Shown here one piece after another: positions 25,991 through 64,000 of a stretch of DNA of 64,000 nucleotides. The position numbers and the translations under genes were made by a program. Within the stretch, counting starts at the first letter, position 1. Each line of letters starts with the position of its first letter. Source of the DNA: Spirochaetia bacterium (lineage in GTDB: Bacteria; Spirochaetota; Spirochaetia; SZUA-6; Bin103); NCBI GenBank assembly GCA_965208575.1, contig CBDBOV010000001.1, positions 96,001 through 160,000 of the forward strand. The letters are read 5' to 3'. The notes under the pieces are model-generated. The model was not told the origin of the DNA. It saw nothing but the letters and a program-made list of their open reading frames with translations, and made no database searches.

Positions 25991-26134
25991 GCAAGTGGTC
26001 AGCCTCGGCTCGACCATCCGGACGGTGCAGCCTGTCGGCCACCCTGCCGAGCATCCTTGTAGGCGATCCGACGTGCCTCGTCCGGCGTCGCCGGGCAGAC
26101 GTGTCCGATCACCACGCGCTTGTTGCCGATGATG

Positions 26135-26187
26135 CCTGGTGAGCAGGGCGAAGCGCGACTCCACCTCGCGGCGCTCGATGGCATTCA
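26135..26187 (-). pseudogene. Tyrosine integrase fragment 1
   Basis: NAIERREVESRFALLT matches the copy at 47990-48040. Confidence 0.8.
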
Positions 26188-26354
26188 ATCGACACGCTCC
26201 GAGCCGACGTGGCCGAAGTGCGTCGCGACCTTCACGTACCGAGCGACCGCGTGGCGCGCATTGAGGGCGCGTTGACCGGTCCCTGGCGACCGCAGACGAA
26301 CGGCGGCACGTCGAATCCCGTAGCGCCCCCGGCGCCGCCAGCGAAGTCCCATAA
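26188..26354 (+). pseudogene. 3' half of the small TM/coiled-coil gene
   Basis: IDTLRADVAEVRRDLH..RVARIEGALTGPW, near-identical to 58057-58224. Confidence 0.85.
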
Positions 26355-26427
26355 TACGCCCGGTGTCAAGGCGGCGCCCACGAACAACTTGTACATGGCA
26401 AGCATCTTGTAGCGCCTCCGTGTCTCC

Positions 26428-26637
26428 TCAGCCGCGGCCCGACAGCGCCTGTTCCAAGCGCCGGAAACCATCCATGAGTTGCTGGTGCAGCACCTCGGCA
26501 CGGCGCGTCTGGTTGGCGGCCTGTTCGCGTTGCGCCGCCACCTGCTCCCGTTGGGCCGCCACCTGGGCGCGTTGCTCGGCTACCTGATGCTTCAGCAGGT
26601 CCCTGATCTCCGTCAGCAACTCTGCAACCTGATCCAT
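26428..26637 (-). CDS. Small coiled-coil hypothetical protein
   Basis: RBS aaggagg; heptad repeats QVAAQRE. Confidence 0.65.
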   Translation of the reverse strand: MDQVAELLTEIRDLLKHQVAEQRAQVAAQREQVAAQREQAANQTRRAEVLHQQLMDGFRRLEQALSGRG

Positions 26638-27128
26638 TTGTCTCGTCCTCCTTGACGGTTCAATCGTGCAACATTCAAGTCCGAGCGGTCAAGAAGAGCC
26701 TCTTTTGCGTATCCGTCGGTGGCTGCGAGCCCCTTGACGGAACTCAACGGCGCCCGCAGCTCGTGGCTCACCATGCCAAGAAACTCCGCCCGCTCGCGCT
26801 CCAACTCCTGCAACGGCCGCAGGTCCTGCATGGTCACGACCACCGACGCGACCGCGCCGCCCCGGCCCGCTATGGGCGTCACGTTGATCAGAATGGAGAT
26901 GGTTCGACCATCGCGCACCGACAACACTACCTCCTCGGCTCGGAGCGGGGCGGCGTTGCTCAGGCACGCCGCCAGCGGGAACTCGTTGAGTGCGATCTCC
27001 TGACCGTCGGCGAGCCGGAAGGTCACCGTCTGCAGCAGTTCTTCCACGGTCTCCGCCGCACCGCTCAGGCTCGATATGCGGTTGCGCAGCGCCTCGATCT
27101 CCCTCATGAGTTCATCCGGACTCTTCAA
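26613..27128 (-). pseudogene. PAS-HisKA histidine kinase remnant
   Basis: ILINVTPI..VVVTMQDL and H-box EFLGMVSHELRAPLSSVKG, then abrupt loss of the HATPase domain. Confidence 0.8.
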
Positions 27129-27329
27129 TCAATCCTCCCGTGCACGGAGGTGTCCACACAAAAAGTACGCAATCTCCCCGTTTGTGCACACTTATTCAAC
27201 TACTTGGCCCCGAATAAGCGTGCCAAAGTGCGCGTTCATACTATGTTGCCGTATTGTCCACACGGGGATCATGAGTGAGATTTTGGACACTGTTCACAAT
27301 CAGGCGGCGCGCTCACCTTCCCCGACCGG

Positions 27330-28553
27330 TTACAGCACGCGCCACCACGGCGCCGCGAGCACGTCGGGCGCCAACCATTCGAGCGCGGCTCCGGCGTGCA
27401 GCAACAGTCCGGAGCGGGCGGCTGCTCCATATTCCGCCCGGAAGGCACGCAGGTTCACCGTGTCACGCAGGCGCGGACGAGTGGTTGTCTTCACCTCGAT
27501 CGGCAACAGCCGCCCTGCGGTCTCGATGACGAAGTCCACCTCGACGCCTGTCGTCGTGCGCCAATACATGAGGTCGGCGGGAGGCAGCCGCGCGTCCCGC
27601 CAACACAGGAGGTCGTGCAGCACGATGTTCTCCAGGTGGGCGCCGCCGGGCTCCTCCTGCTGAGCGAGGTGCAGCGCCAGGCCGGTATCGCTCCAGTAGA
27701 GCTTCGGCAGCTTGCTGACCCGCTTGCCGCGATTGGGCGCATACGCGGGAAGGCGAACGAGCAGATACGACGTTTCGAGCAGGTTGAGGTAGCGGTGCAC
27801 CGTGGTTTGCGGCAGGGAAACGTCTCGGCCCAGCCTGGTCTGATTCACGACTTGGCCCAATTGCAGGCATGCGGCGCGCACGAGGCGGCGAAAGTCCGGC
27901 AGCGCGGTGATCGCCGACAGCCCCTGAAGGTCGCGTTCGAGGTAGGTCTGCACGTACCCGTCGAACCAGATGCGCCTCTGCAGGTCCGTTTCCTGGTGGA
28001 CGGCGGGGACCGGGAAGCCGCCCCGCCGCGCCAGACTCCGCCAGTCCTCCGGCCCGCCTTGCTGCGCCGCCACGAGGTCGAGCCACTGGTCATCGCAGGC
28101 ACCCACGAGCTGTTCCCAGATCCCGCCGCTGCCAAGCCCCCGCTGCTCGCGGCGCGTCATCGGCCACAGACTCAGATAGCTCGCGCGCCCTGCCAACGAC
28201 TCGGAAACCCGTCGCATGAGCAGCAGATTCGCCGATCCCGTCAGGAGGAACCGGCCCGGTTGCCGCTGCCGGTCGATCACGCGCTTCACGGCGTGGAGCA
28301 GGTCGGGATGGCGCTGCACCTCGTCGATGGTCAACGGCTGGTCGCCGCCCACGAGTGCGTCCGGATCGCGCCGGGCGGCGTCGATCGCGTCCAGGTCATC
28401 CAGGGAGACATAGCGCCGGTCGCCCAGCGTCCTGTCTCCCGCCAGCGTGCTCTTGCCGGTCTGGCGCGCGCCCGTCACCACGGCCGCGGGCATCGCCCGA
28501 AGGCGCTCCGCGAGGCTCGGTCCGGCAAGGCGCGGGAGGTGCAATCCATTCAC
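27330..28553 (-). CDS. AAA_14 ATPase with DUF4143 C-terminal domain
   Basis: Walker A GARQTGKS, IDEVQR, LLTGSA, ESLAGR, GGFP, KLYWSDTGL, EVDFVIE..PIEVK. Likely start GTG 28553. Confidence 0.92.
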   Translation of the reverse strand: MNGLHLPRLAGPSLAERLRAMPAAVVTGARQTGKSTLAGDRTLGDRRYVSLDDLDAIDAARRDPDALVGGDQPLTIDEVQRHPDLLHAVKRVIDRQRQPGRFLLTGSANLLLMRRVSESLAGRASYLSLWPMTRREQRGLGSGGIWEQLVGACDDQWLDLVAAQQGGPEDWRSLARRGGFPVPAVHQETDLQRRIWFDGYVQTYLERDLQGLSAITALPDFRRLVRAACLQLGQVVNQTRLGRDVSLPQTTVHRYLNLLETSYLLVRLPAYAPNRGKRVSKLPKLYWSDTGLALHLAQQEEPGGAHLENIVLHDLLCWRDARLPPADLMYWRTTTGVEVDFVIETAGRLLPIEVKTTTRPRLRDTVNLRAFRAEYGAAARSGLLLHAGAALEWLAPDVLAAPWWRVL

Positions 28554-28585
28554 GCTATGAATGATAATCATTCACGCCGTGAATG
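28547..28585. promoter_or_regulatory. Tandem palindromic operator over the AAA_14 promoter and start
   Basis: CATTCA-cgcta-TGAATG (28547-28563) and CATTCAC-gcc-GTGAATG (28569-28585), 22-bp period; minus-strand TATCAT lies between them. Confidence 0.7.
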
Positions 28586-28806: not shown

Positions 28807-29165
28807 CTACTCGGCGAACCCTTTGCTGATGGCGACATTCACCGAAGAGGTTGGATACGCACAGCCGCGGTTGCCGTCTACCCAGCAGTCCTCCGAATAC
28901 TCCGGTTCCGTGAGCACAACCATATTGAAGCTGCCGAGTACCCAGGTAGGCCCCCAGTAGTAGCCGAGCCACGGCTCGCCCCTCTCGTATGCCGTGCTCA
29001 AGGAAGCGATCAATGCCGGGGCGTTCTCGGGGCGGAAGTTGGTGAAGGACGTATCCAATCCATAGGTCGCCAACTTGTCGGTGTTGATCTGCTCGCACTG
29101 CCAGCCGGCGATACAGTTGTGGTAGACACCTGGGCCGGGCTGCTCGGGATCCTGGAAAACGCTGG
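28807..29165 (-). pseudogene. Glycine betaine ABC substrate-binding protein (ProX/OpuAC-like) internal fragment
   Basis: VFQDPEQPG..NCIAGWQCE..YERGEPWLGYYWGPTW; both ends of the gene are missing. Confidence 0.8.
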
Positions 29166-29414
29166 CATGCCGGGGCTAGATGTCTTGGTGATATGCCATG
29201 ATACGGAGCGGTTTAGAGAAAGAGCTCCTATCGAAGTTGATCTGCGCAGAATCAGTATAGATTGCGTCGATGAAAGCATTCGCGCTGGACGGGACTTGGT
29301 GATTTGGGCAGTGCCGCCGCCCCAGGGAGCGGTCAACCGGCACGGTTGCTGCGGAGTCTGCTATCTCCGCACGGCCGGCAATCCGGACGGCGCCGCCATG
29401 TTCGAAGCCGCACC

Positions 29415-29708: not shown

Positions 29709-30612
29709 TCAAGGTGCGCGGGGGCCGTCGAGCGGCGCCAGTCCGAGGACGCGCACCGCCCACGGCAGCGCCGTGCCAAGCTGCTCGCGCTGGACCGAAC
29801 GCACGCGGCGCCATCGGGACCGGCGGTCTTCCCGCGCGCTCGGCGAAGAAGCCGCTGACCACCGCCGCCAGGCGTGCCGCGCCGGGCAGGATTTCCTCCG
29901 GCGCCGGACCGCCCTCGGCGTGCAGGCTCGGGAGCCAGAAGGCGATATCGACATCGGGGTGCGCCAGCACCGCCAGGTTCCAGTCCACCAGCAGTGCACG
30001 CCCGGCGCACAGGCAGAGGTTGTCGCTGCGCACGTCCCAATGGGTAGGGTACGGGCCGTCCAGGTCGGCGCTCTCCTCGGCGTCGATGAGCGGGGGAGCA
30101 CTGCTGCGCAGCCAGCGCCCTGATGCCAGACCAAGCGCCAGAAACTCCGCCGGTGCCGCTGCCACCCGCCGCCAGCTCCCGCCGAGACCGCGATCGGCAG
30201 CGCTCAACGGCGGCAGCGCTTCCCCCGGGTCGGCGGTTCGCAGACTCGCCAGTGCCGCCAGCACCCGGTCGACGGCGGTGGCGTCCCACGGTGGCGGCCA
30301 CCGGCAACCGCTCAGATCCTCCAGCAGCAACAGCGGCCGTTCGCCGTCGTCCCAGCCGCGCACCCGCGGCATGAAGTCGCCCTGCAGCGCTGCGTATACC
30401 CGCTGTTCCGTTCGCAGCCCATCCGCGGTCAACGGGTCGACAGCGATCTTGGCGAACGCGCTCGAGCCATCGGCGAACGCCACGATCCAGCGCTCCGCAG
30501 GGGTGTAACCGCGGAGCGCGCGGCGGAAGCTGACCGCGCGCTGTCCTGCCAAGGCGCCGATACGGGAAATGTCCACCCCGGCCGGCTGGGCGGTGCCGGC
30601 GTCACGACCCAT
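29709..30612 (-). pseudogene. APH/choline-kinase-like phosphotransferase, frameshifted near 29800
   Basis: FAKIA, LLLEDL, HWDVRSDN (Brenner motif), LVDWN. The C-terminus (VQREQLGTALPWA) is in another frame. Confidence 0.8.
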
Positions 30613-30929
30613 TCCCCCATCGTACCCTTGCGAACGAGAGCAGGGTAGGCGGATGCGTCCAGCACGCCGGCGCGGCGGTTTCCACGCCGAGGCGCCACGA
30701 GGCCATTGATCGCTCCGGGTCACGTCGGACGGGTTCGTGGTCGGTACAGCCTCGCTGCGGCGTCATAGTGCGCGGGTTCGGTGGGTAGCACGCTTGCCCG
30801 CGCCAGCAGCCCTCGAAGCGCTTCAAGGTGGCTCTCGTCTCGTGCGCCTGCGAGTACCTCCATCCGGATCGCATTGCAGATCGCGAGGTCGCCGTCCAAC
30901 TCGGCGTGGTATGTAGTGTGTGTACCGCG

Positions 30930-32687
30930 CTACGACACCGCGTCGCAGTGTGCCAGCTCCCAGCCGTGGAAGACCAGCGCCAGCCCCGTGAACCGCACGC
31001 CCGGAAACTGCCGCGCCAGCCGCTCGTCCGCCAAGTAGCGCGCGAGTTGGGTGGTCGCGTCGCTCACCGCCGCCGCCACGGCGTCCCGGTCCGCCGACTC
31101 GCTGCGCTTCAGGTACTTCAGTTCTATCAGGTAGCCGTGCCGCAGGTGCGGGAAGCGCGCGAGCAACGGCTCCAGGCTGATGTCCGCGTGTCCCTTTCCC
31201 AGTTCCGCCTCCGACCGGAACACGTAGAAGTCGGTCACGCTCAGGTAGGCCGCCAGGAACCCTTGGATCACCTTCTCGCCGGCGATGTAATCGCGGATCC
31301 CGGTCTGCGCGGCGATCGCTTCGCCCAGGAATGCGAATGGCGGCCGCCACTCGCCCTGGTTGGCCATGCGCATCATGAGCTGCTCGAAACGGTACAGGTC
31401 GACCCTGAACACCGCCACGTCGCGATAGCCGTCGCGCAGGTAGCCGTACATCAACTGTTTCACTGTCTGGTTCGGGATCGCCAGCCGCGGCATTCCGTGC
31501 ACGACCTCGCGGATGCTCAGCAGCCCGAAGTAGTGCAGCAGCGACAGGAAGTTCTGCCGGTCGGTGAGCTGCTGCAACGGGAAGCCCGGCTGGATGCGCG
31601 GCAGGTCCTTCCGCCCCTCGCCTATGATCTCGCGCAGCAGGTCGAAGTTGCCGTTGAGCTGCCGCCCCACCACCAGCAGGTGGCGCAGCTTGCCGTAGTC
31701 GATGCGCACGTTGGTGTCGATCAGGTACCTCGGCACGTGCCGGTTCGGCATCGACTCGTCCAGGTAGTAGAGCACCATGTCGGAGTTGTAGAGATCGTGC
31801 TCGGCCTCCTCGGCGAACCGGTAGCCGTTGTACCACTCGCCCATCAGGGCCATGGCTTCATCCACGTCCTGGTCGAACAGGCCGCGGTCCCGGTAGAGCT
31901 CCACCAGGCGCCGCACCTCCGCCTCCGTGAAGCCGACCATCTCGTTGAAGTCGGGGTGCAGGCTGATGTTCTTGCCGATGTTGAACCCGCTGGTGACGTC
32001 GTCCATGGTGACCGGCGACACGCCGGTGATGAACAGGCGGTCGATGCCGCCGCCGCTGCGCGCCGTGCCGCCCTTGAGGGCGGCGAAGAAGTTGCGGTAG
32101 AAGCCGCCGCCGTGCGTGAAGTCCTCGTACGCCTGGGTGCCGTGGTGCGCCAGCACGGTGTTGGCGAAGTTGTCGTACTCGTCGATCAGCACGTACAGCG
32201 GGATCTCATGGTCGCCCGCGTACCGGAACAGCATGCTCAGCTTGGTGGCGATGGAGGGCGGCGCAAGGATACGCTGCCGCGCCACTTCGGGAAACAGGTC
32301 GGGATGCCGCTCCAGCGCTCCCCGGAGCTCTATCATGCAGTAGGTTTCGAACTCCCGCTCCAGGGTTTCGAGCTTGTCGTTGACCATCGAGAAGTCGAAG
32401 CGCAGCACGACGTAGCGGTGGCGCTCCGCGGTCGGGTTGCGTCCGATGTCGGTGCCGGCGAAGGTGGCGTCGAATTCGTGGCCCCACCAGCGGTCGTAGT
32501 AGTTCTCCAGCACCGACACCCACAGCGACTTGCCGAACCGCCGCGGGCGGATCAGGAAGACGTAGTCCTCCCGTTCCAGACGCCGCAGGAAGCGGGTCTT
32601 GTCGACGTACAGCCAGCGGTTCAGGCGGATGCGCCGGAAGTCGGACTGGCCGTAGGGAATGCGCGGGTGTATCGGAACCACGTCCAC
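30930..32687 (-). CDS. AAA-ATPase-like plus PD-(D/E)XK (PDDEXK_9-type) nuclease
   Basis: IPYGQSDF, YVDKT, RPRRFGKSL, LIDEYDN, FITGVSP, WYNGYRF, IPN, GHADI..LIELKY. Confidence 0.93.
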   Translation of the reverse strand: MDVVPIHPRIPYGQSDFRRIRLNRWLYVDKTRFLRRLEREDYVFLIRPRRFGKSLWVSVLENYYDRWWGHEFDATFAGTDIGRNPTAERHRYVVLRFDFSMVNDKLETLEREFETYCMIELRGALERHPDLFPEVARQRILAPPSIATKLSMLFRYAGDHEIPLYVLIDEYDNFANTVLAHHGTQAYEDFTHGGGFYRNFFAALKGGTARSGGGIDRLFITGVSPVTMDDVTSGFNIGKNISLHPDFNEMVGFTEAEVRRLVELYRDRGLFDQDVDEAMALMGEWYNGYRFAEEAEHDLYNSDMVLYYLDESMPNRHVPRYLIDTNVRIDYGKLRHLLVVGRQLNGNFDLLREIIGEGRKDLPRIQPGFPLQQLTDRQNFLSLLHYFGLLSIREVVHGMPRLAIPNQTVKQLMYGYLRDGYRDVAVFRVDLYRFEQLMMRMANQGEWRPPFAFLGEAIAAQTGIRDYIAGEKVIQGFLAAYLSVTDFYVFRSEAELGKGHADISLEPLLARFPHLRHGYLIELKYLKRSESADRDAVAAAVSDATTQLARYLADERLARQFPGVRFTGLALVFHGWELAHCDAVS

Positions 32688-36126: not shown

Positions 36127-36164
36127 CAGCCTTGTTCTCGATCTTCCAATTCGCCCCGCGGCGC

Positions 36165-36557: not shown

Positions 36558-36574
36558 TGGCCGCGCGCGGGCCC

Positions 36575-46432: not shown

Positions 46433-46434
46433 TG

Positions 46435-53090: not shown

Positions 53091-53100
53091 GGTGAGGCTG

Positions 53101-53754: not shown

Positions 53755-55288
53755 GGGTGCATTCCGTCAGTGTGGTAGCGGTCAGGCAGCCTCAAGCTGG
53801 ATCTGGTTGGATTCTGGGGTGGGCGATGAGGGCAACAGGCTCTCGAAATCGTCCCAGAAGCGACGGCTCTTCGCCGAAGCGCGGAGCTGAAGCATCTCCT
53901 TGGCTCCGTCCAGCGACCAAGTCATCCCACTCTGCTTCATGCGCTTGGCGACGACGTTCTTGCAGGCTCCCTCGACTACACCGCTGCCGATCGGCAGACC
54001 GCACGATCGATACAGCGGGTAGTCCATGCGGTGCTGGTTGGCCGTGAAGTAGTTGATCTCGCCCTGGAGGTCGTAGCACTGCTTCTCGCTGTAGCGGCCA
54101 CTGACGTGCAGTTCCTGCAGTTCCTTGATTACGGCGGCGACGCAGCCCTTGCGCAGCAGGCTGCGCCAGCGCTTGAAGGATCTCTTGAACTGCTCGCTGC
54201 CCTCGCCGTACAACACCTTGCCGATCTTCCCCAAGTGGTCGCAGGCATGCCAGAAATCGAGGATGTGCCAGACCTTCTGCCCGGGTTCGGACAGCTGGGA
54301 GACCCGGTCCCATATCCAATGCGCTCCATCGCCCAGAATCACCAGCACCAGCGCTGCCAGGTGAGCGCTGCGCCGGCTCATTTCCACCTCGATCCGGGGA
54401 AAGAACTCATCAGCATGCTCGATCCCGGTGACACAGGAGGTCTTGGTGCAGTGCGCTGCACCCTCCCGGTCCACCTTCACCGCTGATACCGTCGCTACCT
54501 TGGAGTCCCGAAACACGCGATCGTAACTCTTTTTCCCATCTTCAGTTACCCGCTCGTTCGCGCGTGTCGCCACCTTCCCCGCGTCGATGCCCACGACCAT
54601 CGTCCCGGTGATCTCTTCGCGCACCGCCACCGGCTCGTCGGCACGCTCGACAATCTCCCGCTGGCGTTGCTCCGCCAACCCGTCAGTAACCGCCCGCACC
54701 ATCTCGAACGCCTTGTTCATCGACACCAGCTCCCGCCCGTCAGGCCGCAACACCTCGTGGAATTGCGCCAGACCCTGCTCGTAGGACTGCTCGGCGCACC
54801 ACCGCGCCATGAAGTACTGGCACCCAGGCGTGTACCCGCCCGCGATACCCAGTTGCTCTGTCAGCGGCACCCACCCCTTGCCACCGCCACCGAGCGGCGC
54901 GTAGTAGGCGCGCACCAAGGTGATCACGCCGAACAGCCCATGCAGCGTCTTCCGCCGTCTCCCGACAAAGCGGTACCGAACCTCGCCGCGGGTTGCGCGC
55001 GCACCGACATACCCATCACCGACTTGCTCACACCAGCGTTGCATCGCTGCACGTCCCGCAGCCACCAGGCACTTCAGCATACCGAGCTCCGCGGCGAGCA
55101 GATCCCGTGGTCCGCTGCACGGGTTCAGGTCAATCCCGCACCGGGTCTTGCAAAACCGGAGCAACTCCGTTACCAAGGTCTCACTCATTTTGGTCCCCTC
55201 CCAGAGACAGGTCGATGTTTACCACATCACCGAATCTCTGGTCTCTGGGAGGGTTCCTATTCCGCTACCACAGAGAAAGAATGCACCC
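53755..55288 (-). mobile_element. Intact ISKra4-family (p-MULE) insertion sequence, 1534 bp
   Basis: TIRs GGGTGCATTC-N6-TGTGGTAGCGG / CCGCTACCACA-N6-GAATGCACCC; 9-bp target duplication caccgcgtg at 53746-53754 and 55289-55297. Confidence 0.92.
53782..55188 (-). CDS. ISKra4-family DDE transposase
   Basis: GIDAGK, LGDGAHWIW, LDFWHACDHL (Mutator D-xx-H), IGSGVVEGACK. Confidence 0.92.
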   Translation of the reverse strand: MSETLVTELLRFCKTRCGIDLNPCSGPRDLLAAELGMLKCLVAAGRAAMQRWCEQVGDGYVGARATRGEVRYRFVGRRRKTLHGLFGVITLVRAYYAPLGGGGKGWVPLTEQLGIAGGYTPGCQYFMARWCAEQSYEQGLAQFHEVLRPDGRELVSMNKAFEMVRAVTDGLAEQRQREIVERADEPVAVREEITGTMVVGIDAGKVATRANERVTEDGKKSYDRVFRDSKVATVSAVKVDREGAAHCTKTSCVTGIEHADEFFPRIEVEMSRRSAHLAALVLVILGDGAHWIWDRVSQLSEPGQKVWHILDFWHACDHLGKIGKVLYGEGSEQFKRSFKRWRSLLRKGCVAAVIKELQELHVSGRYSEKQCYDLQGEINYFTANQHRMDYPLYRSCGLPIGSGVVEGACKNVVAKRMKQSGMTWSLDGAKEMLQLRASAKSRRFWDDFESLLPSSPTPESNQIQLEAA

Positions 55289-55429
55289 CACCGCGTGGCA
55301 ACTGGCCCTCACTTCGCCAGCGGGGCGGCCACCGCCGGTGCGGGCACCGCGTGCGCCGGGTCACCTTGCCGCCGCCGGGTCGGGGTGGCCGGCGTCGGGC
55401 TGCACCGTTGGCCCCTCATCGTGCCCGCA

Positions 55430-55903
55430 CTCCGGGCCGGCCTCCAGGATCGCGTCCATGCGGTCGGCGATGAGTTGGGCCGGGCCGCGGAGCTGGCCGA
55501 TGGTCCAGTCGGCCGCTTAGCCCTCGGTCATGTCGGTGGGGCGGGCGTGGTTGACCAGCCGCTTGGTCAGCGAACGCGGCAGGGTCAGCTCGCGGTCGGC
55601 GATCGTGATCAGGCAGTTGCGGAAGCCGAGGAACCAGAACTTCCTGCCGCCCGCGCGCGAGATGCGGGCGTAGAGGTGGGTGAGCACCGACACGTGGCCC
55701 GACCGGCTCGCCGGCGACGGGGAATACCCAGCCGGTGCCGCCGGTTTCGCTGCGCCGCCACTCCAGGATCGACGCAAGCTGCCGGGTGATCGGCAGTTCG
55801 AGCGGGGTACCGGTCTTGGTGTGCGGCACGTGCACGACCCCGCGCGCCAAGTCCACGCGCTCCCAGCGCAGCGTCAGAATCTCGCCCCGCCGCATCCCGG
55901 AGT
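55430..55903 (-). pseudogene. Tyrosine integrase fragment 7
   Basis: SGMRRGEIL through DAILEAGP, with a frameshift, H-to-L in HxxR (FLGFR), and TAA at the catalytic Tyr. Confidence 0.9.
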
Positions 55904-55959
55904 GCCGGGAAGGGGGCCTCTTCAATGCCGACCTTGGTCCACTCTCCCTGCCGGTTCAG
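55903..55959 (+). mobile_element. Orphan IS21-type right-end remnant
   Basis: gccgggaagggggcctcttcaatgccgaccttggtccactctccctgccggttcaga, homologous to 32841-32896. Confidence 0.5.
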
Positions 55960-56188
55960 AACTTGCCCGCCTCCGCCAGATGCGGTAACAATCCACAGTC
56001 AGCAGCGTCCGCGCAAGAGGGCACGGCATTTCCATGCTAGTTCGTTCTGCTGAATACGATACCGCCTTCGTGGGCAGGGAGTAGCTGCCCCGCCGCTGGA
56101 CACGAATAGTCGGAAGCCCAATCCACGGACGCTGCAAACCTCCGGTCCGGTATCTTGCCGGCGCTGAACGTGTAGCGAGGTGTATTTC

Positions 56189-57028
56189 ATGCAACGCCTT
56201 TCGTTGGTCGTGGCGGCCGTGGTGGCTGTCTCCCTTCTCATCGTGGCGTGCGAAGAACCAGTCCCACGTGGCAACCCTGGGCAACTAGGGCCGCCCACTG
56301 CAGCTGAACCCGAACGCGAACCCGAACGCGCACCTGAACCCGAACGCGCACCTGAGCCTGAATCCCAACCTGAGCCCGAATTCCGTATCGAGCTCATCTA
56401 CGATGGACAGGTGCCTGCCAACATCATCTCTGGGCTGGACAGGGCGGTAGAGTACTGGCAGAGAGCTATTACAGCCGATGGCGGCCCACCCATCACTACC
56501 GGTGGAGGAGCGGGGGACTGTGCTCTTCCAAGTGCTTACACTGACTACGAAACGGACGACCTACTGATCGTCATTTCTATGGAAGCCATGCCCCTGGATG
56601 TAACTACGGTCGGGGGTGTCATCATTGACAATACACCGTTGGCGATTGCCTACAGTTGCTCCTACCGGGCGAACGGGCTGCCGTACTTTGGGCGCATCGC
56701 CTTCAACGATGATCCGCACAGGGCATCATCCTTCGATAGGAGCGCGTACAACATCGCAAGGCATGAGATCGCCCACCTGTTGGGGTTTGGGTCTTCACCG
56801 GCATGGCATCGTCACGTCAGCGGCGGATACTTTCGTGGGCCCGAAGCTGTGAGGGTGTTCGGTGGCCCTGTGCCTGTGACATCCGAAGGGCACTGGCTAT
56901 CGGTGCCGGGCTTGACGTGGGACATAATGAGCGTTCCGAGTGTTGCAGTCTTTAAAGTTACGCTCGCAGCGCTCGCGGATATCGGGCACACGGTTGATTA
57001 CGCACATGCGGAACCTTCGCCGTTCTGA
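56189..57028 (+). CDS. Leishmanolysin (M8)-like zinc metallopeptidase lipoprotein
   Basis: Lipobox LIVAC; PE repeats; HEIAHLLGF, downstream HW, Met-turn DIMS, TLAALADIG. Confidence 0.82.
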   Translation: MQRLSLVVAAVVAVSLLIVACEEPVPRGNPGQLGPPTAAEPEREPERAPEPERAPEPESQPEPEFRIELIYDGQVPANIISGLDRAVEYWQRAITADGGPPITTGGGAGDCALPSAYTDYETDDLLIVISMEAMPLDVTTVGGVIIDNTPLAIAYSCSYRANGLPYFGRIAFNDDPHRASSFDRSAYNIARHEIAHLLGFGSSPAWHRHVSGGYFRGPEAVRVFGGPVPVTSEGHWLSVPGLTWDIMSVPSVAVFKVTLAALADIGHTVDYAHAEPSPF

Positions 57029-57175
57029 ACCACGGGGTGGCCCGTTTGTATGCGGGGCGTTCGGGTAGGCGCTACCGGATCGTATTGAGGTGGGTTCCAA
57101 GCAACGCCGGTTCTTGGCGGTAGCGGTCTCGCAGTCCTCGCGCCAGTACAGCTTCGCGCAACGCAACACCGGCGG

Positions 57176-57400
57176 TTGTTGCAGGTGGACGCGGATGTGC
57201 TGTTGTCCGATGATGGTCGCGCAATCCGAACGTGCCGGATCATGCGATTGCCGTTCACCACCTCGCCGCGGGTTGTCGTCGACCTCTACCGCGAAGGGGT
57301 CATTGGCCGGCCCAAGGCGCGGACGGCCCTGGAGACGCTGGCGGTCGCCGGGAGATACGCGCGTGATATCATAGCCGCCGCATTGGTGGCGTTGCTGGAG
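57176..57400 (+). pseudogene. PIN-domain toxin C-terminal fragment
   Basis: LLSDDGRAIRTCR..VVDLYREG..LAVAGRY; N-terminus missing; an ~80-bp insertion follows. Confidence 0.6.
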
Positions 57401-57492
57401 TCTGTACGGTCACTCCGTGACATGGAAGACGATGAATCCGATGCCGAAGCATCGGCTGGCGGCCGGCTTTTTCGGACCAGGAGCAGAGAAGG

Positions 57493-57795
57493 ATGACCAA
57501 ACCCACGACCATCCGCCTTCCTGAGGATGTCTTGAGCGAACTCGACCGGCGCGCCGAGGCCCGCGGCAAGGATCGAGCGACCCTGGTGCGGGAGTTGCTT
57601 CGGGCTGCACTGGACCGGGACAAGGAAGATGAGGTCGTGACCGCCTACGAGTCCGGTCGCCTCTCCGTGTCGCAGGCCGCCGCGCGACTCGGCACCGACG
57701 CATGGTCGCTGTTCGACATCCTCGCACGGAGGGGCGAGACGGTGAGCGTATCGTTGGAAGATTGGAGGGACTCGCGCACGTCGCTGTCGCGTTAG
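57493..57795 (+). CDS. RHH plus UPF0175 antitoxin
   Basis: PTTIRLPEDVLSELDRRA..YESGRLSVSQAAARLG. Confidence 0.82.
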   Translation: MTKPTTIRLPEDVLSELDRRAEARGKDRATLVRELLRAALDRDKEDEVVTAYESGRLSVSQAAARLGTDAWSLFDILARRGETVSVSLEDWRDSRTSLSR

Positions 57796-57882
57796 CCGCA
57801 GTTCGAGCGCCGCCAAGGGGCACGTTGCCTGCGATTCACACTCCCTCGCGCCAGCGGGCCGGTTGCAGTATGCTCGTCCCCA

Positions 57883-58224
57883 ATGCCGGACGGAGTTACC
57901 GTGTTGGTCGGCGCGGTGGGAGCGGTGGCCGCGCTGCTGGCCGTACTGGTGCCGGTGATTCGTGGGCAGGGGGCAGCCCTGCGCCGCGAGATAGAAGGGC
58001 AAGGGACGAGTCTGCGCCGCGAGATCGAGGGGCAAGGGACGAGCCTGAGCCGCGAGATCGACACGCTCCGAGCCGACGTGGCCGAAGTGCGTCGCGACCT
58101 TCACGTTCTGAGCGACCGCGTGGCGCGCATCGAGGGCGCGTTGACCGGTCCCTGGCGACCGCCGACGAACGGTGGCACGTCGAATCCCGTGGAGCCCCCG
58201 GCGGCCGCCAGCGAAGTCCCATAA
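57883..58224 (+). CDS. Small N-anchored coiled-coil protein (three 11-aa repeats)
   Basis: TM helix plus GQG(T/A)(S/A)LRREIE x3, then RVARIEGALTGPW. Confidence 0.85.
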   Translation: MPDGVTVLVGAVGAVAALLAVLVPVIRGQGAALRREIEGQGTSLRREIEGQGTSLSREIDTLRADVAEVRRDLHVLSDRVARIEGALTGPWRPPTNGGTSNPVEPPAAASEVP

Positions 58225-58306
58225 TATGCCCGGTCGCCCGGCCCCCGCTATCGGCGGAAGCCGAGTCAGTTCCCAGTCAAGCGAACCAGGTTGAGCCGAG
58301 CGTCAG

Positions 58307-58785
58307 TGCCGGGTGATCGGCAGTTCGAGCGGGGCACCGGTCTTGGTATGCGGCACGTGCACGACCCCGCGCGCCAAGTCCATGCGCTCCCAGCGCAGCG
58401 TCAGAATCTCGCCCCGCCGCATCCCGGAGTACATCGCAACCCAGAAGATCGAGCGGGTCGCCGGGTCCTTCACCACCGCCTTGATGCCGCGGTGCCAGTA
58501 GGGCAGGGCTTCCGCGGGCGACGAGATCACCCGCCGCACGATCGGGTTGAAGCGCCCGCCCGCCGCAAGCCACAGGTCGACCGGGTTGCGTAGCCCTCGT
58601 GATCGACGCAGGCGCGGCGGTAGATGGAGCGCAGGAGCGAGATCACCTGGTTGTCGATCGCCCAGCCGTGGTTCCTGGTGAGCAGGGCGAAGCGCGCCTC
58701 CACCTGGCGGCGCTCGATGGCATTCAGCGGGCGCGACACCCAGTCGGCGAGATAGTGCTCGATGGCGCGGCGGTAGGCGTCACTG
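58307..58785 (-). pseudogene. Tyrosine integrase fragment 8
   Basis: DAYRRAIEHYLADW through PHTKTGAPLELPITR, with a frameshift near 58592. Confidence 0.9.
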
Positions 58786-58827
58786 GACGGCCCGCCTCCG
58801 GTCAAGAGTCGAAGTCGCGCCGCGGAT

Positions 58828-59151
58828 TCATGGTGCGGCCTCCGAGGGCGTAGCGGGTGCCGGAGCCGGAGTGCCGTTCGCGGGGCGCCAAGGCACGGCA
58901 AGCGCACCTTCCATGCGGGCTACGCGCTCGGCCAGGGCATGCAGGTCGTCGGTCAGCCGCTCGGTGCGTGTGATCAGGTCACGGCGCACCTCCGCTACGT
59001 CGGCGCGCAACTCGGTGCGTGTCGCGGACAAATCGGCGGCGAGGGCGTCCATGCGGGCGTCTATGCGGCGTCCAAGCGTCAACAGCATCGGCACCAGCAC
59101 GCCGAGCAAGCCGACGGCGGCGCCCACGATTGCGACAGCTTCGGCGCTCAT
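58828..59151 (-). CDS. Small N-anchored coiled-coil protein (paralogue)
   Basis: MSAEAVAIVGAAVGLLGVLVPML..ADVAEVRRDL..ERVARMEG. Confidence 0.8.
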   Translation of the reverse strand: MSAEAVAIVGAAVGLLGVLVPMLLTLGRRIDARMDALAADLSATRTELRADVAEVRRDLITRTERLTDDLHALAERVARMEGALAVPWRPANGTPAPAPATPSEAAP

Positions 59152-59293
59152 GGTGTGCTCAACAATACCGGCGGCGGGCGGGTGGCGTCCAGAGTAGTTG
59201 GTCGTCGTGCACTTGGTAGATTATTCGGTAGTCCTGGACTCGAATACACCAGAATGGCTGGCCTTGGAGCTTGCGACACCCGGCGGTCGTGGG

Positions 59294-59398
59294 TCAGTGC
59301 GCAAGGAATCGATTCGTCACCGCGATGCGCTCCGTGACCGGACCGTGGATTCGCTTGAGATCGCGCTGGGCGGCAGGGACGAAATCAACCCGATACAC
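59294..59398 (-). pseudogene. RelE toxin, truncated
   Basis: VYRVDFVPAAQRDLKRI..ERI, then unrelated sequence; overlaps the antitoxin stop. Confidence 0.75.
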
Positions 59399-59582
59399 CG
59401 AGCTCGATCTTGACCTGCTCCCAGGGAATCCGCTCTGCGTCCTGCATTGCTTCATCGATAGCTTTGCGGTCGTCGTGTTGTTCAAGCAACTCGACGAGCT
59501 TCTCGGAGAGATCGACAGGCAGGACGACGGCTACCTTGTCACCAGTCTCGTCGCAGACGAACCGAGGTTCTGTCAATGCCAT
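59385..59582 (-). CDS. RelB-like antitoxin
   Basis: FVCDETGDKVAVVLPV..LLEQHDDRKAI..IPWEQVKIELG. Confidence 0.8.
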   Translation of the reverse strand: MALTEPRFVCDETGDKVAVVLPVDLSEKLVELLEQHDDRKAIDEAMQDAERIPWEQVKIELGVSG

Positions 59583-59869
59583 GATCCAAGATTCTGACGG
59601 GCTTACGGCTCGGCTGTCTGCCAACCAGGTCGCGACAGGGTTGGAGGTAGCGACCATGACAGTGTTCTCGGGGGCGCGCCGGTGGCGAATTCTGTTGCGA
59701 TCGTCCCGGTGGCTGCCGGCAAGGAGGAACGCCCGGCCACCCGCAATGGCGATGGGGCTCAGAACGGCGAGCTTGCCGCACCAACGGATCAGCTGGCCGC
59801 CTCTGCACCGTCAGGGTGGATCAATTTCTGGCCGGCATCCCGGCTCGCTTCTCAAGCGGCGCGCGCAGC

Positions 59870-60155
59870 GCGCGATGAGTTGGGCCGGGCCGCGGAGCCG
59901 GCCGATGGTCCAGTCGGCCGCGTAGCCCTCGGTGACGTCGGTGGGCCGGGCGTGGTTGACCAGCCGCTTGGTCAGCGAACGGGGCAGGGTCAACTCGCGG
60001 TCGGCGATTCGCCCAGCCGTGGTTCCTGGTGAGCAGGGCGAAGCGCGCCTCCACCTCGCGGCGCCCGATAGCATTCAGCGGGCGCGACACCCAGTCGGCG
60101 AGATAGTGCTCGATGGCGCGGCGGTAGGCGTCACCGGTCTTCAGGTTGTCCGACA
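59870..60155 (-). pseudogene. Tyrosine integrase fragment 9 with a large internal deletion
   Basis: KTGDAYRRAI..NHGWA joined at ~60008 directly to IADRELTLPRS..EGYAADW. Confidence 0.9.
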
Positions 60156-60340
60156 CTCCTAATTATTTGCAGTGAATTGAATTAAGCCGCATTACCCTCT
60201 ATCGCACCCATTCTCCCTACGACGAAATCCTCCATCCGTTCGATCAATTGCATTGTATTCCTCCGCAGTGGTATCTTCGTATGTTAGAATATCATAGTAT
60301 CCTCAACGTACTAACCGCATCGATTAACGGAGGAACCATT

Positions 60341-60856
60341 ATGCCTGATGATGACTGGTGGACACCAAGCGGAGAACGTTTTGCCGTGACATATAGGATG
60401 ACTAGTATAATTTCCAACATAATCGGCGACCGAATCACGGTGCGGTTCTACGGTTGGGCACTTGCTTATGCCTCCAAAGGACTCGTCTGGATCGACGGCG
60501 TACATCCAGGCGCCTGTACCGCATCTGGTACGAACATGGAGGAGGCAATGGAAGACCTGCGCAACACACTTGGTAAGATTCTCTTCGACATCGCCGCGTC
60601 ATCCGATAAGGGATTCGAGGATTTCGCACGAACCATCAATGCATTCGTTTCTGCCACTGACGAGCCAACGCTGAAGGATTGGAATGCTGTCAAAGGCGAT
60701 GCCGAAGAAAAGCCCTTCGGTGTTTCCATAACTCTCGAACAAGCGGTGTTGCCACAAGCGTCAACTCAGCCTCAACGACACCCATTTATAGAAGACAATC
60801 CGAATGTGGTGTCTCCTGATCCGGTGGAATACAATCAACTAGCTAGAGCGATATAG
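60341..60856 (+). CDS. HicB-like protein (low GC)
   Basis: RBS ggagg; WIDGVHPGACTASGTNMEEAMEDLR resembles the HicB N-terminal fold. Confidence 0.55.
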   Translation: MPDDDWWTPSGERFAVTYRMTSIISNIIGDRITVRFYGWALAYASKGLVWIDGVHPGACTASGTNMEEAMEDLRNTLGKILFDIAASSDKGFEDFARTINAFVSATDEPTLKDWNAVKGDAEEKPFGVSITLEQAVLPQASTQPQRHPFIEDNPNVVSPDPVEYNQLARAI

Positions 60857-60860
60857 CGCA

Positions 60861-61100
60861 ATGCCCCAAATCCGACAGGATAAGGTACTTCTCGCACTCG
60901 AAAAATGCGCTCCAGGATTTGAAATTTCCGAAACTGTGCATCACAACTGGATTCGGTTCAACTCTAACGAATTCCCTTTGCCGAAAGGCGAACACGGGAG
61001 GAGTAATCCAGAAATACACCTTTTCCAAGTGCGAAAAATGTCAAGAACGCTTGGGATTGAAGACTGTATGAAAGAGCTCATCCCAAGCTACCGAAATTAG
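60861..61100 (+). CDS. HicA-like small protein (low GC)
   Basis: 79 aa, HH..I.F..PLPKGEH..EI..QVRKM..LGI; coupled to the upstream gene. Confidence 0.5.
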   Translation: MPQIRQDKVLLALEKCAPGFEISETVHHNWIRFNSNEFPLPKGEHGRSNPEIHLFQVRKMSRTLGIEDCMKELIPSYRN

Positions 61101-61569
61101 GTTCCGTAAACTGTGAGTTCGGACTAGTCACAATCGATTGGTCCGGGCTTCTTGTTCACTGTTTCCAATTCGAAATCTGCTTTCCTATCGTTTTGATCAA
61201 ACGCATCGAGAGTCCCGTCGATCTATGCCTCAGTTTTATCTTGGTGCTGTTGCGTTGCGCGCCCCCAGCCGAGGTTAGTTGCAGGATAGATGGCGCGGAG
61301 TGTGGGAGCCTGGTCGTTCCGTTCCGAGTGCGTCCGTGGTGCGGAACGGCGGAACGGTGTGGGTGAGAGGGAGCAGGCAACGGACGGTGCGGGTCAGGCA
61401 GGCAGGTGCCAACCGGCGGGGCTGCAGACGGCGAGGCCTTGCTGTTGGAAGTCTGGAGGGCGGCACCGAGACGGGCGTTGTTGACGCGCAGGCGTTTGGC
61501 GGAGGACGGTCCTGTAGAGCGGCTCGCTGGCGCTGCGGTGTGCGGCGCGCACCGCCGAGCGGGGGCGGC

Positions 61570-61888
61570 GACCGCTAAGCTGGAGAGAGCGGGGTGGAAG
61601 CTGGGAACTGCCAAGGAGTTCCTGGGTCTCACTGGGGAAGAGGCGGCTCTGATAGAAATCAAACTCGCGCTCGCCAGGGGCATCAAAGAGCGACGGCTCT
61701 CCTTGCGGCTCACACAGGAAGGCCTCGCGAAGCAATTGAGATCGAGCCAGTCTCGGATCGCGAAGATGGAGGCTTCCGACGCTACGGTGTCCATGGATCT
61801 CCTGGTGCGCTCGCTTCTCGTGCTCGGCGCGACGACTGAGGAAGTCGGACGGGTAATCGCAAGGAGTTCGGAGGCGCCGGCCGCTTGA
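61570..61888 (+). pseudogene. Second copy of the XRE antitoxin, native start lost
   Basis: Near-identical to 53115-53433; the duplication continues to ~62020 and includes integrase fragment 10 (61980-62032). Confidence 0.85.
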
Positions 61889-62057
61889 GGACGCGCCGTA
61901 GCGCTCGCTGCGCATGCGCGCCGGCTACCCCGCGGCGGCGACGATCCGGTCGCTGAACAAGCCGTGGTCGCCGATGATGCTTGGTAAGCAGGATGAAGCG
62001 CGCCTCCACCTCGCGGCGCCCGATGGCATTCACCGTTGGCCCGCTCGAACCGCACGG

Positions 62058-62167
62058 TGGGCGAGTGGAGCGAGGCCTTCGGCGACATCCATGGTCGCCA
62101 CGGCGATCCTTGACCGTCTGCTGCCCTCGACAAAACGGCCAGCCAACAGCATCGAATCGGGTTGACA
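62058..62167 (+). mobile_element. IS21 istB fragment and right end
   Basis: EWSEAFGD and MVATAILDRLL (IstB C-terminal motif, frameshifted), ending gaatcgggTTGACA. Confidence 0.65.
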
Positions 62168-62203
62168 AGCGATTTGTGGCGTGCCTACGGTCGGCAGAAC
62201 GGC

Positions 62204-62669
62204 ATGGCGCCCCAGTTGTATCAGCCGCACGACAACCTGTTCCGCAAGGTGTTTGCCGATGCGACCGAGGCGGCCGGCTTGCTCCGTCCGAACCTGCCGA
62301 CGTGGCTGAGCGCCACGCTGGATTGGTCGACGCTTACCCTGCAGGATCGCAGTTACGTGGACGAAGCGCTGGAGGCCAGCCAGTCCGACCTGCTGTTCGA
62401 GGTGCGGCGACGCGTTGCGACGGCACGTACCAGGACCGGGAGGAGACATGAAGACGTACGCAGAGGAGTTGCTCCACGAAGGCCGCCAGGAAGGCCGGCT
62501 TGGTACGATCGAGAATTTCTTGCGTGCCGGAGTCGAGTGGTCGGTCATCACGGAAGCGACCGGTATCGACCAGGAAGCCTTCCGGGCACTCCGTCGGGGT
62601 TCGAAGAGTCGGACTCGGCCGACCGGCAGCGCGACGCCTCCGCCTCCAGCGACAACTGACGGAAGCTGA
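62204..62669 (+). pseudogene. Rpn/YhgA-like (Transposase_31) nuclease with internal deletion
   Basis: PHDNLFRKVF..LDWSTL..SYVDEAL..SDLLFEV, then a jump to the C-terminus MKTYAEELLHEGRQEG. Confidence 0.88.
62448..62669 (+). CDS. Putative small Rpn C-terminal (RpnS-like) protein
   Basis: RBS GGAGGAG at 62439-62445 immediately before ATG 62448. Confidence 0.55.
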   Translation: MKTYAEELLHEGRQEGRLGTIENFLRAGVEWSVITEATGIDQEAFRALRRGSKSRTRPTGSATPPPPATTDGS

Positions 62670-62844
62670 CCCGCCACGAGGCGGTCATCGGCCGCCTCCG
62701 CGACAGCCTATCGAGAATCGGGCCAGGCTTCGGCGCCGCTCGTGCTTCGCTACGCGGATGCAGCGCTGGTTGCGGGACTTGTCGAATATTGTTCGGTACG
62801 GGCGGTCGAAGCAGCGCCGCGCCGAAGTCTGCCGCTCGCTGGAG

Positions 62845-63704
62845 GAGCAGAAGGATGACCAAACCCACGACCATCCGCCTTCCTGAGGATGTCTTGAGCG
62901 AACTCGACCGGCGCGCCGAGGCCCGCGGCAAGGATCGAGCGACCCTGTGCCGGAGTTGCTTCGGGCTGCACTGGACCGGGACACGGTAGATGAGGTCGTG
63001 ACCGCCTACGAGTCCGGTCGCCTCTCGCTGTCGCAGGCCGCCGCGCGACTCGGCACCGACGCATGGTCGCTGTTCGACATCCTCGCACGGAGGGGCGAGA
63101 CGGTGAGCGTATCGTTGGAAGATTGGAGGGACTCGACCACGTCGCTGTCGCGTTAGCCGCAGTTCGAGCGCCGCCAAGGGGCACGTTGCCTGCGATTCAC
63201 GCTCCCTCGCGCCAGCGGGCCGGTTGCAGTATGCTCGTCCCCAATGCCGGACGGAGTTACCGTGTTGGTCGGCGCGGTGGGAGCGGTGGCCGCGCTGCTG
63301 GCCGTACTGGTGCCGGTGATTCGTGGGCAAGGGACGAGTCTGCGCCGCGAGATCGAGGGGCAAGGGACGAGCCTGAGCCGCGAGATCGACACGCTCCGAG
63401 CCGACGTGGCCGAAGTGCGTCGCGACCTTCACGTACTGAGCGACCGCGTGGCGCGCATCGAGGGCGCGTTGACCGGTCCCTGGCGACCGCCGACGAACGG
63501 TGGCACGTCGAATCCCGTGGAGCCCCCGGCGGCCGCCAGCGAAGTCCCATAATATGTCCGGTCGCCCGGCCCCCGCTATCGGCGGAAGCCGAGTCAGTTC
63601 CCAGTCAAGCGAACCAGGTTGAGCCGAGCGTCACTGCCGGGTGATCGGCAGTTCGAGCGGGGTACCGGTCTTGGTGTGCGGCACGTGCACGACGCCGCGC
63701 GCCA
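62845..63704. repeat. ~860-bp direct duplicate of 57486-58377
   Basis: Contains a frameshifted UPF0175 antitoxin (62855-63156), a coiled-coil gene and integrase fragment 11 (63635-63704). Confidence 0.93.
63244..63552 (+). CDS. Small N-anchored coiled-coil protein (two 11-aa repeats)
   Basis: Same as 57883-58224 minus one 33-bp unit. Confidence 0.85.
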   Translation: MPDGVTVLVGAVGAVAALLAVLVPVIRGQGTSLRREIEGQGTSLSREIDTLRADVAEVRRDLHVLSDRVARIEGALTGPWRPPTNGGTSNPVEPPAAASEVP

Positions 63705-64000
63705 TGTCAATTGCCGGCATGCATCGGTCCGGGCGGGACTGGGAGGGCGACCGAGCCGCCATGAGGGGCGCGAGTGACGCCGGTGGAGCACGATTCGGCT
63801 CCCGGATGAGCGCCCGAGCAGGTCACGGGGACGGCCTTGCCACGCTTGCCCGGGCGGTCTGGGCACGGAGCGCCGGCGTACGCTGACAGGCCAGCGCGAG
63901 GCTGGGCGGCTTGCGCCCGTGCGCTGGCCCGCGAGGCATCTCGCGGCGCCTATGCCGTCCAGGGATCGAAAACTTTGACGTCGATGCCCTCGAAGTCCCG

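Follow-up and report, generated by a model that had tools for sequence, protein, structure and literature searches.

A co-oriented array of tyrosine integrase remnants in a variable chromosomal region of a Spirochaetia bacterium

A 64,000-nucleotide stretch of the genome of a Spirochaetia bacterium (GenBank assembly GCA_965208575.1, contig CBDBOV010000001.1, positions 96,001 to 160,000; hereafter the window, C1:96001-160000) carries, from 26.1 kb to its right edge, a series of broken copies of one tyrosine integrase gene interleaved with unrelated genes. The studied genome (G000) comprises 6.5 Mb in 6 contigs (C1-C6), with 67% GC and 5.75% contamination. This series is the left 38 kb, and the more eroded part, of a larger variable region. 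We favour, with moderate confidence, the reading that it belongs to a long-lived plasticity region seeded by integrase-bearing units and later remodelled in place. The evidence lies in the anatomy of the array, its inheritance in two species, broken junctions that have themselves been duplicated, tracts of gene conversion, and searches that found no attachment (att) or transfer RNA (tRNA) marks. The anatomy fits a known kind of locus, a decaying hotspot with tandem integrative units.

Integrase loci were mapped using the intact 1293-nt gene as query, and "nt" below refers to positions in that gene. Eleven loci were found in the window, all on the minus strand (Table 1). This agrees with an earlier reading made without database searches (the sequence-only reading), which had listed 11 minus-strand remnants at these places and had described them as differing in breakpoints, with none intact; each indeed covers another part of the gene. 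Over the whole genome, 26 integrase matches were detected at the DNA level, all on C1:122-207 kb and none on C2-C6, with 23 on the minus strand. Counted as loci there are 25, of which 22 lie on the minus strand, 23 are remnants and 2 are intact. At the protein level G000 holds a single other match, 25% identical, and a Pfam search of the genome for integrases showed a cluster at this locus only, with single genes elsewhere. The array continues for ~47 kb beyond the right edge of the window, for a total of ~85 kb, and the plasticity region as a whole spans ~92 kb at one chromosomal position, from about window position 21.3 kb to C1:208.9 kb. When the window was compared with itself, the repeat pairs lying wholly beyond 26 kb numbered 66, of which 62 were direct and 4 inverted, at 72-98% identity. 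Neither fragment length (rho 0.22, p 0.35) nor fragment identity (rho 0.13, p 0.58) showed a gradient along the array.

Table 1. Integrase copies and other features of the array. Positions are those of the window unless preceded by C1; Pfam, NCBIfam and Rfam scores are in bits.
Feature	Position	Strand	Description
Integrase remnant 1	26035-26187	minus	nt 455-516 then nt 201-290 (permuted order)
Integrase remnant 2	37691-37851	minus	nt 632-790; G006 has a fragment with near-equal limits, nt 638-798
Integrase remnant 3	44960-45169	minus	nt 940-1149
Integrase remnant 4	47270-48120	minus	nt 375-1224; longest in the window; frameshift and stops
Integrase remnant 5	50486-50765	minus	nt 727-1002
Integrase remnant 6	53527-53651 and 53662-53741	minus	nt 1380-1459 (to 169 bp past the stop) joined to nt 380-505
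Integrase remnant 7	55291-55903	minus	nt 752-1362
Integrase remnant 8	58307-58781	minus	nt 400-875
Integrase remnant 9	59872-60141	minus	nt 391-532 joined to nt 1051-1187; internal deletion, 10-bp match overlap
Integrase remnant 10	61982-62035	minus	nt 452-505
Integrase remnant 11	63634-63708	minus	nt 802-876; end of block 62838-63708
Intact integrase	C1:179800-181089	minus	
Intact integrase	C1:204769-206076	plus	
HigB-like toxin	25679-25951	minus	Pfam 63.3, cut-off 27; left edge of the G000-specific part of the array
AAA_14 + DUF4143 ATPase, intact	27330-28571	minus	Pfam; PADLOC candidate defence family PDC-S01, 354 bits
OpuAC-type substrate-binding protein gene, fragment	28810-29175	minus	Pfam OpuAC 73, profile positions 114-214 of 257 only
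AAA-ATPase_like + PDDEXK_9 gene	30930-32687	minus	Pfam; downstream DNA from 30220
VHL beta domain protein	34978-36126	plus	Pfam 36.3, cut-off 21; single copy in the locus
MalT-like gene piece, 328 bp	36230-36557	plus	98% to 40254-40581
Exo_endo_phos-like open reading frame	37860-38738	minus	Pfam 24.4, cut-off 24.5 (marginal); GC 0.56; unique in the genome
MalT-like regulator (AAA_16, TPR_MalT, GerE/LuxR)	39207-42056	plus	Pfam; NCBIfam MalT 122, below cut-off
Truncated duplicate of 30220-31221	43941-44960	minus	Abuts remnant 3; matches overlap by 1 bp at 44960
Group II intron D1-D4 remnant	46121-46344	plus	Rfam RF02005, 112; gathering score 49
Orphan open reading frame, 398 aa	48835-50031	minus	GC 0.53; single copy; no Pfam match; Atlas, hypothetical clusters only
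ISKra4-family transposase	53782-55188	minus	NCBIfam 230, cut-off 205
Leishmanolysin-like open reading frame	56180-57028	plus	Pfam Peptidase_M8 20.5, cut-off 21 (marginal); GC 0.59; single copy
Conserved integrase-downstream backbone (nt 1519-1890) and 0.5-kb repeated segment	57258-58305	minus	
Orphan open reading frame	60248-60856	plus	GC 0.52; single copy
Second copy of block 57479-58383	62838-63708	minus	94%; same break, ends in remnant 11

An intact copy, for which the sequence-only reading had proposed a search, was found twice in the genome, once on each strand. One intact copy (P0001) matches Phage_integrase (PF00589; 48.2 bits, cut-off 27.1) and, over residues 16-107, the N-terminal arm DNA-binding domain Arm-DNA-bind_3 (PF13356; 55.1 bits, cut-off 27). 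The enzyme is thus predicted to be a tyrosine recombinase of the arm-binding integrase type, presumably the group labelled "P4-like". The usual activity of arm-type integrases is integration and excision. Homology among the copies extends 169 bp past the stop codon, and in some copies to ~nt 1890. A full unit consists of the integrase gene, ~0.6 kb of conserved downstream DNA and, upstream, a divergent collagen-repeat lipoprotein gene. The one locus holds several co-oriented integration modules, a conserved module going with unit-specific cargo. The lipoprotein genes begin with a conserved signal peptide that ends in cysteine, after which come Gly-X-Y repeats that match Pfam Collagen marginally (21.5-26.6 bits, cut-off 27.2); past them lies the start of an immunoglobulin (Ig)-like repeat gene that encodes 2085 amino acids in its full copy. 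Relatives of the integrase outside the genus, in genomes and metagenomes, are 55-68% identical and occur as single copies, one head-to-head pair excepted, and the lipoprotein partner is absent beside them. That pair lies in an alphaproteobacterial genome (L021:8189-11230), where two full relatives (59% and 62% identity) stand 580 bp apart. No relatives were found in viral contigs, and those in plasmids are at most 30% identical. Within the array, a truncated copy at C1:161496-162632 (minus strand) begins exactly at an internal ATG (nt 331) and has an open frame that spans the catalytic region and is shifted for the last residues only; its product could be an integrase that lacks the arm-binding domain.

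Forty related genomes were examined, 10 of them of the same genus, among these a sister species (G006) and the genomes G001 and G007. The integrase family was present in 2 of the 40, both in the genus, and a single contig of G006 (C156, 86.8 kb) carries 14 loci of it. The left flank of the locus is syntenic between the sister species, with G006 positions 2-16343 matching window positions 10398-25219 at 86-94% identity, and synteny ends at 25219. Landmarks follow the same order in both genomes: the AAA_14 gene, the AAA-ATPase_like gene, an integrase stump (remnant 2 and its G006 equivalent), the MalT-like gene (G006 array positions 35264-37818, 90-91%), an intact minus-strand integrase, an N-terminal stump that reaches nt 159 in both species, a giant gene, and an intact plus-strand integrase. 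Synonymous divergence (dS) between G000 and G006 was 0.08-0.21 for seven aligned genes, 0.94 for an eighth (56% identity), and 0.11 for both pairs of intact integrase orthologs. Taken together, the collinear G006 array, the shared left flank and the dS values show that the array predates the species split and was inherited; it already existed in the common ancestor of the two species, and the dS values fit vertical descent.

The contents of the array have changed around this framework. A comparison across related genomes, proposed earlier as a check for cargo turnover, showed that content differs: counterparts in the G000 locus were found for 54% of the G006 array, and none was found on the G006 contig for the VHL gene, the EEP-like gene, or the genes at 42147-43169, 48835-50031, 56180-57028 and 60248-60856. 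The same interval is 64 kb long in G001 and 26 kb long in G007, vs. 92 kb here, and in G001 it holds other tyrosine recombinases. As a separate observation, three open reading frames (ORFs) of the flank (15768-17339, plus strand; 18921-20369 and 23453-25183, minus strand) had ratios of nonsynonymous to synonymous divergence (dN/dS) of 0.89-1.12 between G000 and G006, while the other aligned genes gave 0.19-0.35; they either encode fast-evolving proteins or represent wrongly chosen frames.

Blocks of the array have been duplicated in place. The 3′ end of the AAA-ATPase_like gene and its downstream DNA, at 30220-31221, recur at 43941-44960 (96%, 1020 bp). Further pairs, numbered from the start of the window, are 53115-53580 and 61570-62035 (96%), 57479-58383 and 62843-63711 (94%, 905 bp), 64147-65061 and 81133-82043 (99%, 915 bp), and 65256-66330 and 70652-71723 (96%, 1075 bp), and a backbone segment present at 57479, 62838 and 68090 has a spacing of ~5.3 kb. 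The duplicated DNA includes junctions at which the integrase was already broken. A joint between nt 1459 (169 bp past the stop) and nt 378 occurs three times in G000, at 53651/53662, 65400/65409 and 70796/70805, and twice in G006, with identical sequence at the joint, and a break at nt 875/876 beside a 0.5-kb repeat is common to the remnants at 58307 and 63634. Because broken junctions have themselves been duplicated, at least some of the copies stem from renewed duplication of broken pieces, and 11 remnants do not mean 11 entries. The sequence-only reading had described copies of one tyrosine integrase family arranged head to tail, with later deletion, tandem amplification of blocks and unique lower-GC genes in between, and these elements stand; repeated entry as the sole source of copies does not, given the recurrence of one rearranged junction within and between the two genomes. 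Of the duplicated neighbour fragments that it had listed, the MalT-like piece was recovered, at 98% identity; the duplicated 3′ end of the AAA-ATPase_like gene has 96%.

Two further processes have left traces. Where the array has been broken, adjacent matches overlap by 0-10 bp (1 bp at 44960 and at 26125; 10 bp at 59999-60008), and such joints would be the product of illegitimate joining with no fixed core. The genome carries a gene for Ku, which may have had a role at these junctions. Gene conversion was assessed by permutation, and 15 of 90 copy pairs contained an identical run at p<0.01; in G006, the plus-strand copy is identical to minus-strand copies over nt 747-1176. The integrase copies cluster roughly by genome, with weak support.

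Local duplication extends well past this locus. In G000 as a whole, 21% of the sequence is matched by another copy at an identity of at least 80%, and for 10% such a copy lies within 60 kb. Local repeat pairs are direct in 925 of 1025 cases (90%) outside the locus and in 143 of 185 inside it, and all-direct mosaics are also found at C6:500-536 kb and C5:120-185 kb. The locus is the densest case, with 116 small local pairs in C1:120-160 kb vs. 48 in the next window outside it. Since direct pairs prevail and all-direct mosaics occur elsewhere, co-orientation is a signature of local duplication in this genome and not one specific to the integrase. The sequence-only reading would have been undercut by such fragments at equal density and in random orientation over the genome, and the outcome is mixed: integrase fragments occur at this locus only, but direct-repeat mosaics are common.

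In the history that we favour, the first units would have entered by integrase-mediated insertion. Multi-kb blocks that already held broken copies would have undergone unequal tandem duplication, the integrase copies would have exchanged sequence by gene conversion, and illegitimate deletions, probably made by end-joining or slippage, would have left the 0-10 bp overlaps. An insertion sequence (IS) element, a group II intron and toxin-antitoxin pairs have landed in the array, low-GC orphan genes would have entered as well, and at least one inversion has taken place.

Several observations weigh against this remodelling history, namely signs of constraint among the stumps, conversion signals that are weaker within G000 than within G006, asymmetric flanks, and clustered 5′ breakpoints. 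The first of these bear on classical tandem accretion, in which at least 10 related elements, each with its own working integrase and cargo, would have entered one att site, with backbones and att sites deleted later. Among truncated copies (pairs of at least 150 codons) dN/dS was 0.12-0.40, comparable to the 0.21-0.30 of the intact ortholog pairs, and differences between truncated copies amounted to 4.4%, 3.5% and 10.3% at the three codon positions, an excess at the third. Stump divergence therefore looks selected, which suits separate arrivals of working genes. The low ratios could mean either that the copies still functioned while most of the divergence accrued or that they were rewritten by conversion from a working copy. 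Changes specific to single copies are nearly uniform by codon position (24, 25 and 38), and the copies fall into two integrase lineages separated by a dS of ~0.2; both points accord with accretion. So does the layout of the flanks, since a conserved module follows the integrase and unique DNA precedes it. Of 18 loci, 14 border on unique DNA at the 5′ side and 10 at the 3′ side, an asymmetry in line with units that combine a conserved integration module with variable cargo.

Accretion is further favoured by the situation in G001, where the integrase family is represented by a stump only, ~50 kb away, at a site syntenic with C1:271-273 kb and so at another chromosomal position. A pair of genes for a TacA-like antitoxin and a GNAT acetyltransferase (L001:5579-6443, that is C1:165579-166443) lies in a segment, C1:165513-166517, that matches G006 C156:41795-42799 at 99.0%, vs. 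86-94% in the flanks. This suggests that the pair was exchanged recently between the species, and it can be counted on the side of accretion, as can the similar tandem islands described in Dehalococcoides (PMC3146451).

The units of an accretion array would be bounded by direct repeats of one att core, and an integrase of this type would be expected to integrate beside a tRNA or transfer-messenger RNA (tmRNA) gene with a repeat of its 3′ end; no such marks were found. The region C1:103-230 kb contains no tRNA or tmRNA, and a search of the whole window with Rfam at the gathering threshold returned the intron piece only, with no tRNA. No 13-mer recurred at least four times with at least three copies outside long repeats, a search that misses cores shorter than 13 bp or eroded ones, and no informative repeat was found around the intact integrase unit. 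None of six loci of integrase relatives has a tRNA upstream. The att or tRNA site that the sequence-only reading had hoped to find beyond the window edge was thus not encountered. The nearest ARAGORN call is a doubtful tRNA-Pro(GGG) at window positions 6496-6568, which Rfam did not report at its gathering threshold; the call overlaps a multi-copy element (4970-7240) with dozens of matches in G006. The duplication of broken junctions, the absence of a size or identity gradient, the rough grouping of copies by genome and the collinearity of landmarks between species also stand against accretion, which we judge unlikely while continuing to give it real weight.

The clustering of 5′ breakpoints raises another alternative. 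About 10 of ~20 distinct 5′ ends fall within nt 319-469, just after the arm-binding domain, with unrelated flanks, and random deletion does not predict such a cluster. A resident integrase might insert foreign genes into this 5′ third of integrase copies, each capture disabling one duplicated copy and leaving a stump beside the cargo, in an array that has no attC sites and is stabilised by toxin-antitoxin genes. The unique DNA at 14 of 18 5′ sides could be read in this manner, as could two ORFs (37860 and 45180) that end 9-11 bp from an integrase break, the first of them stopping 9 bp from the 5′ break of remnant 2, the presence of toxin-antitoxin genes, and the retention of intact integrases in both species. 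The breaks in the cluster, however, occupy at least 8 different positions instead of one site, and the 3′ ends are spread. No motif common to the break flanks was found and no hairpin in the 5′ break zone (z -0.08), and the GC content of the flanks is equal (5′ side 0.608, 3′ side 0.610, p 0.75). In a test of 10 cargo proteins with PADLOC, one (AAA_14/DUF4143) matched a defence model.

The integrase itself argues in the same direction. Its sole NCBIfam match, to a site-specific tyrosine recombinase/integron integrase family, scores 18.9 bits with a cut-off of 220, and it has an arm-binding domain; the remark in the sequence-only reading that no IntI is visible was accurate. The structure of attC sites is conserved more than their sequence, and no attC-like recurrent short repeats were detected by the 13-mer search, in which no attC structure model was run. 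With neither an integron-type integrase nor a recurring att-like repeat, the integron-like platform proposed from the sequence was not borne out, and capture of genes by a resident integrase is in our view very unlikely.

A third possibility is a surface-protein switch, in which the two intact, opposed integrases would serve inversion or exchange among lipoprotein and adhesin genes with 5′ ends in common, the integrase fragments being debris. "Shufflon-like" is the label used for comparison with an invertible switch of this sort. A divergent lipoprotein gene accompanies each full integrase, and the shared lipoprotein start is present in four copies, two in each orientation. An 11.6-kb block lies between 568-bp inverted repeats that are 91% identical (C1:190885-203072; G006 C156:64361-77544) and that are the 5′ ends of the 2085-residue Ig-like repeat gene. 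G000 and G006 carry this block in opposite orientations, and the giant gene is consequently attached to a different integrase-lipoprotein unit in each species. Ordinary homologous recombination could nevertheless explain a single inversion between repeats of this identity, the flip is seen between species only, and arm-type integrases usually integrate and excise. The part of the array within the window contains no copy of the upstream parts of the unit (lipoprotein or Ig-like starts). A switch of this kind seems improbable to us as the origin of the array.

We also considered that the array might be an artefact, with strain variants or repeats wrongly joined in assembly. The division of the genome into 6 contigs, its 5.75% contamination and its 21% repeated sequence would permit this, and Logan contigs of metagenome runs, which show presence and not absence (uncovered bins in X1, X3 and X4 were not read as gaps), contain alternative joints at repeats: 62336 to 62615 (X1, X3 and X4), 57393 to 62838 (X17 and X1), and 52903 to 58785 (X1 and X4). 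Such joints are no more than hints and could reflect either strain variation or the paths that the assembly graph takes through repeats. Two contig ends, C4:1-20000 and C5:1240001-1261091, are each wholly covered by one other copy and may represent overlap between contig ends in the assembly. Between 85 and 88% of sampled sequence words are present in four runs, all of one sample; X17 is one of these and possibly derives from the source sample. Contigs of X17 cross integrase breaks with 0 differences at 46372-47302, 47990-49614 (the 5′ break of the remnant at 47270-48120) and 55874-57227. The G006 array comes from an independent assembly of another species, and the copies are 2-16% divergent and broken at different points, as collapsed or duplicated haplotypes would not be. 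The collinear G006 array and the exact X17 contigs across junctions make an assembly chimera unlikely, to the point that we attach almost no weight to it. Relatives of the lineage are present in sponge and coral-reef metagenomes, where three other studies contain pieces of the locus at 93-99%, unique genes included; for the ORF at 60248-60856, related pieces at ~97-98% were found in the sponge metagenome run X1. A long-lived plasticity region, seeded by integrase-bearing units and remodelled in place, remains the reading that we prefer.

The genes between the remnants are a mixture of repeated and unique DNA. The lower GC of the unique genes, pointed out from the sequence, was verified (0.52-0.60 vs. 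0.67 for the genome); most unique ORFs match no Pfam family and are single-copy in the genome. As for the gene names assigned earlier, AAA_14, VHL and MalT-like were supported by Pfam, and EEP and leishmanolysin-like are marginal, just below cut-off, but no Pfam matches (E≤0.01-5) were obtained in the frames tested for APH, XRE, UPF0175, ankyrin and the Hic pair, for which the right frames were possibly missed. A 1.75-kb family that includes the AAA-ATPase_like + PDDEXK_9 gene has 20 further copies in G000 at ~75-85% and many in same-genus genomes. The group II intron remnant is unique in the genome save for a 113-bp copy at 30103-30215, and a Pfam search found no reverse transcriptase in the ORF that follows it. 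The gene at 53782-55188, a candidate for cargo, was rejected as such, being an ISKra4-family transposase; this element has 24 further copies in the genome, and the four longest among those listed are 100% identical. Beyond the window the array contains an IS3-type transposase and further toxin-antitoxin genes. At window positions 57395-57485 lies a dispersed repeat of ~85 nt, with 48 matches over all six contigs. Many loose contig ends fall at 57398 and 57436 in all four runs compared, and the repeat folds no better than its shuffles (z -0.19).

If the history that we favour is true, the locus is an unusually clear fossil record of the ageing of a hotspot, legible after a species split, in a lineage that both generates extensive local direct duplications and tolerates them. 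Of all its features, only the clustering of 5′ breaks just behind the arm-binding domain could hint at new recombination behaviour; were the capture of genes by a resident integrase real, the locus would be a chromosomal gene-capture array without attC sites.

A literature search, too limited to prove that none exists, returned no description of this locus. Chromosomal integrons (superintegrons) are long co-oriented arrays of unrelated small genes with toxin-antitoxin genes interspersed. The present array resembles them in these respects, but it has no IntI-type integrase, no recurrent attC-like repeats were found in it, and here the integrase copies are themselves the repeated element. Pavlovic et al. 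are said to have described, in 2004, how ICESt1-type and cis-mobilizable elements accrete and are deleted in Streptococcus, reportedly a matter of tandem site-specific insertion followed by loss of integration genes, which is the model put forward in the sequence-only reading. Whereas those arrays reportedly have recognisable attL and attR sites and few units, 23 remnants and no detectable att are found here.

Regions of genomic plasticity, or insertion hotspots, contain tandem mobile elements and integrase pseudogenes (bioRxiv 10.64898/2026.01.13.699239). As in such regions, the interval is variable in every same-genus genome examined and holds other recombinases in G001; what is unusual is the number of remnants of one family and their persistence across a species split. 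In Dehalococcoides, tandem islands downstream of ssrA are each bounded by a 20-bp repeat of the ssrA end and carry a serine recombinase, and none is duplicated within a strain (PMC3146451). The two cases share many co-oriented integration modules within ~100 kb at one place, with a conserved integration module and variable cargo per unit and some units apparently fixed and degraded. They differ in that here no att repeat or tRNA/tmRNA was found, the integrase is a tyrosine enzyme, and blocks are duplicated. The array described here is set apart from its closest known cases by the number of its stumps of a single integrase, the att marks that were looked for and not found, the renewed duplication of pieces already broken, and its survival across the split of two species.

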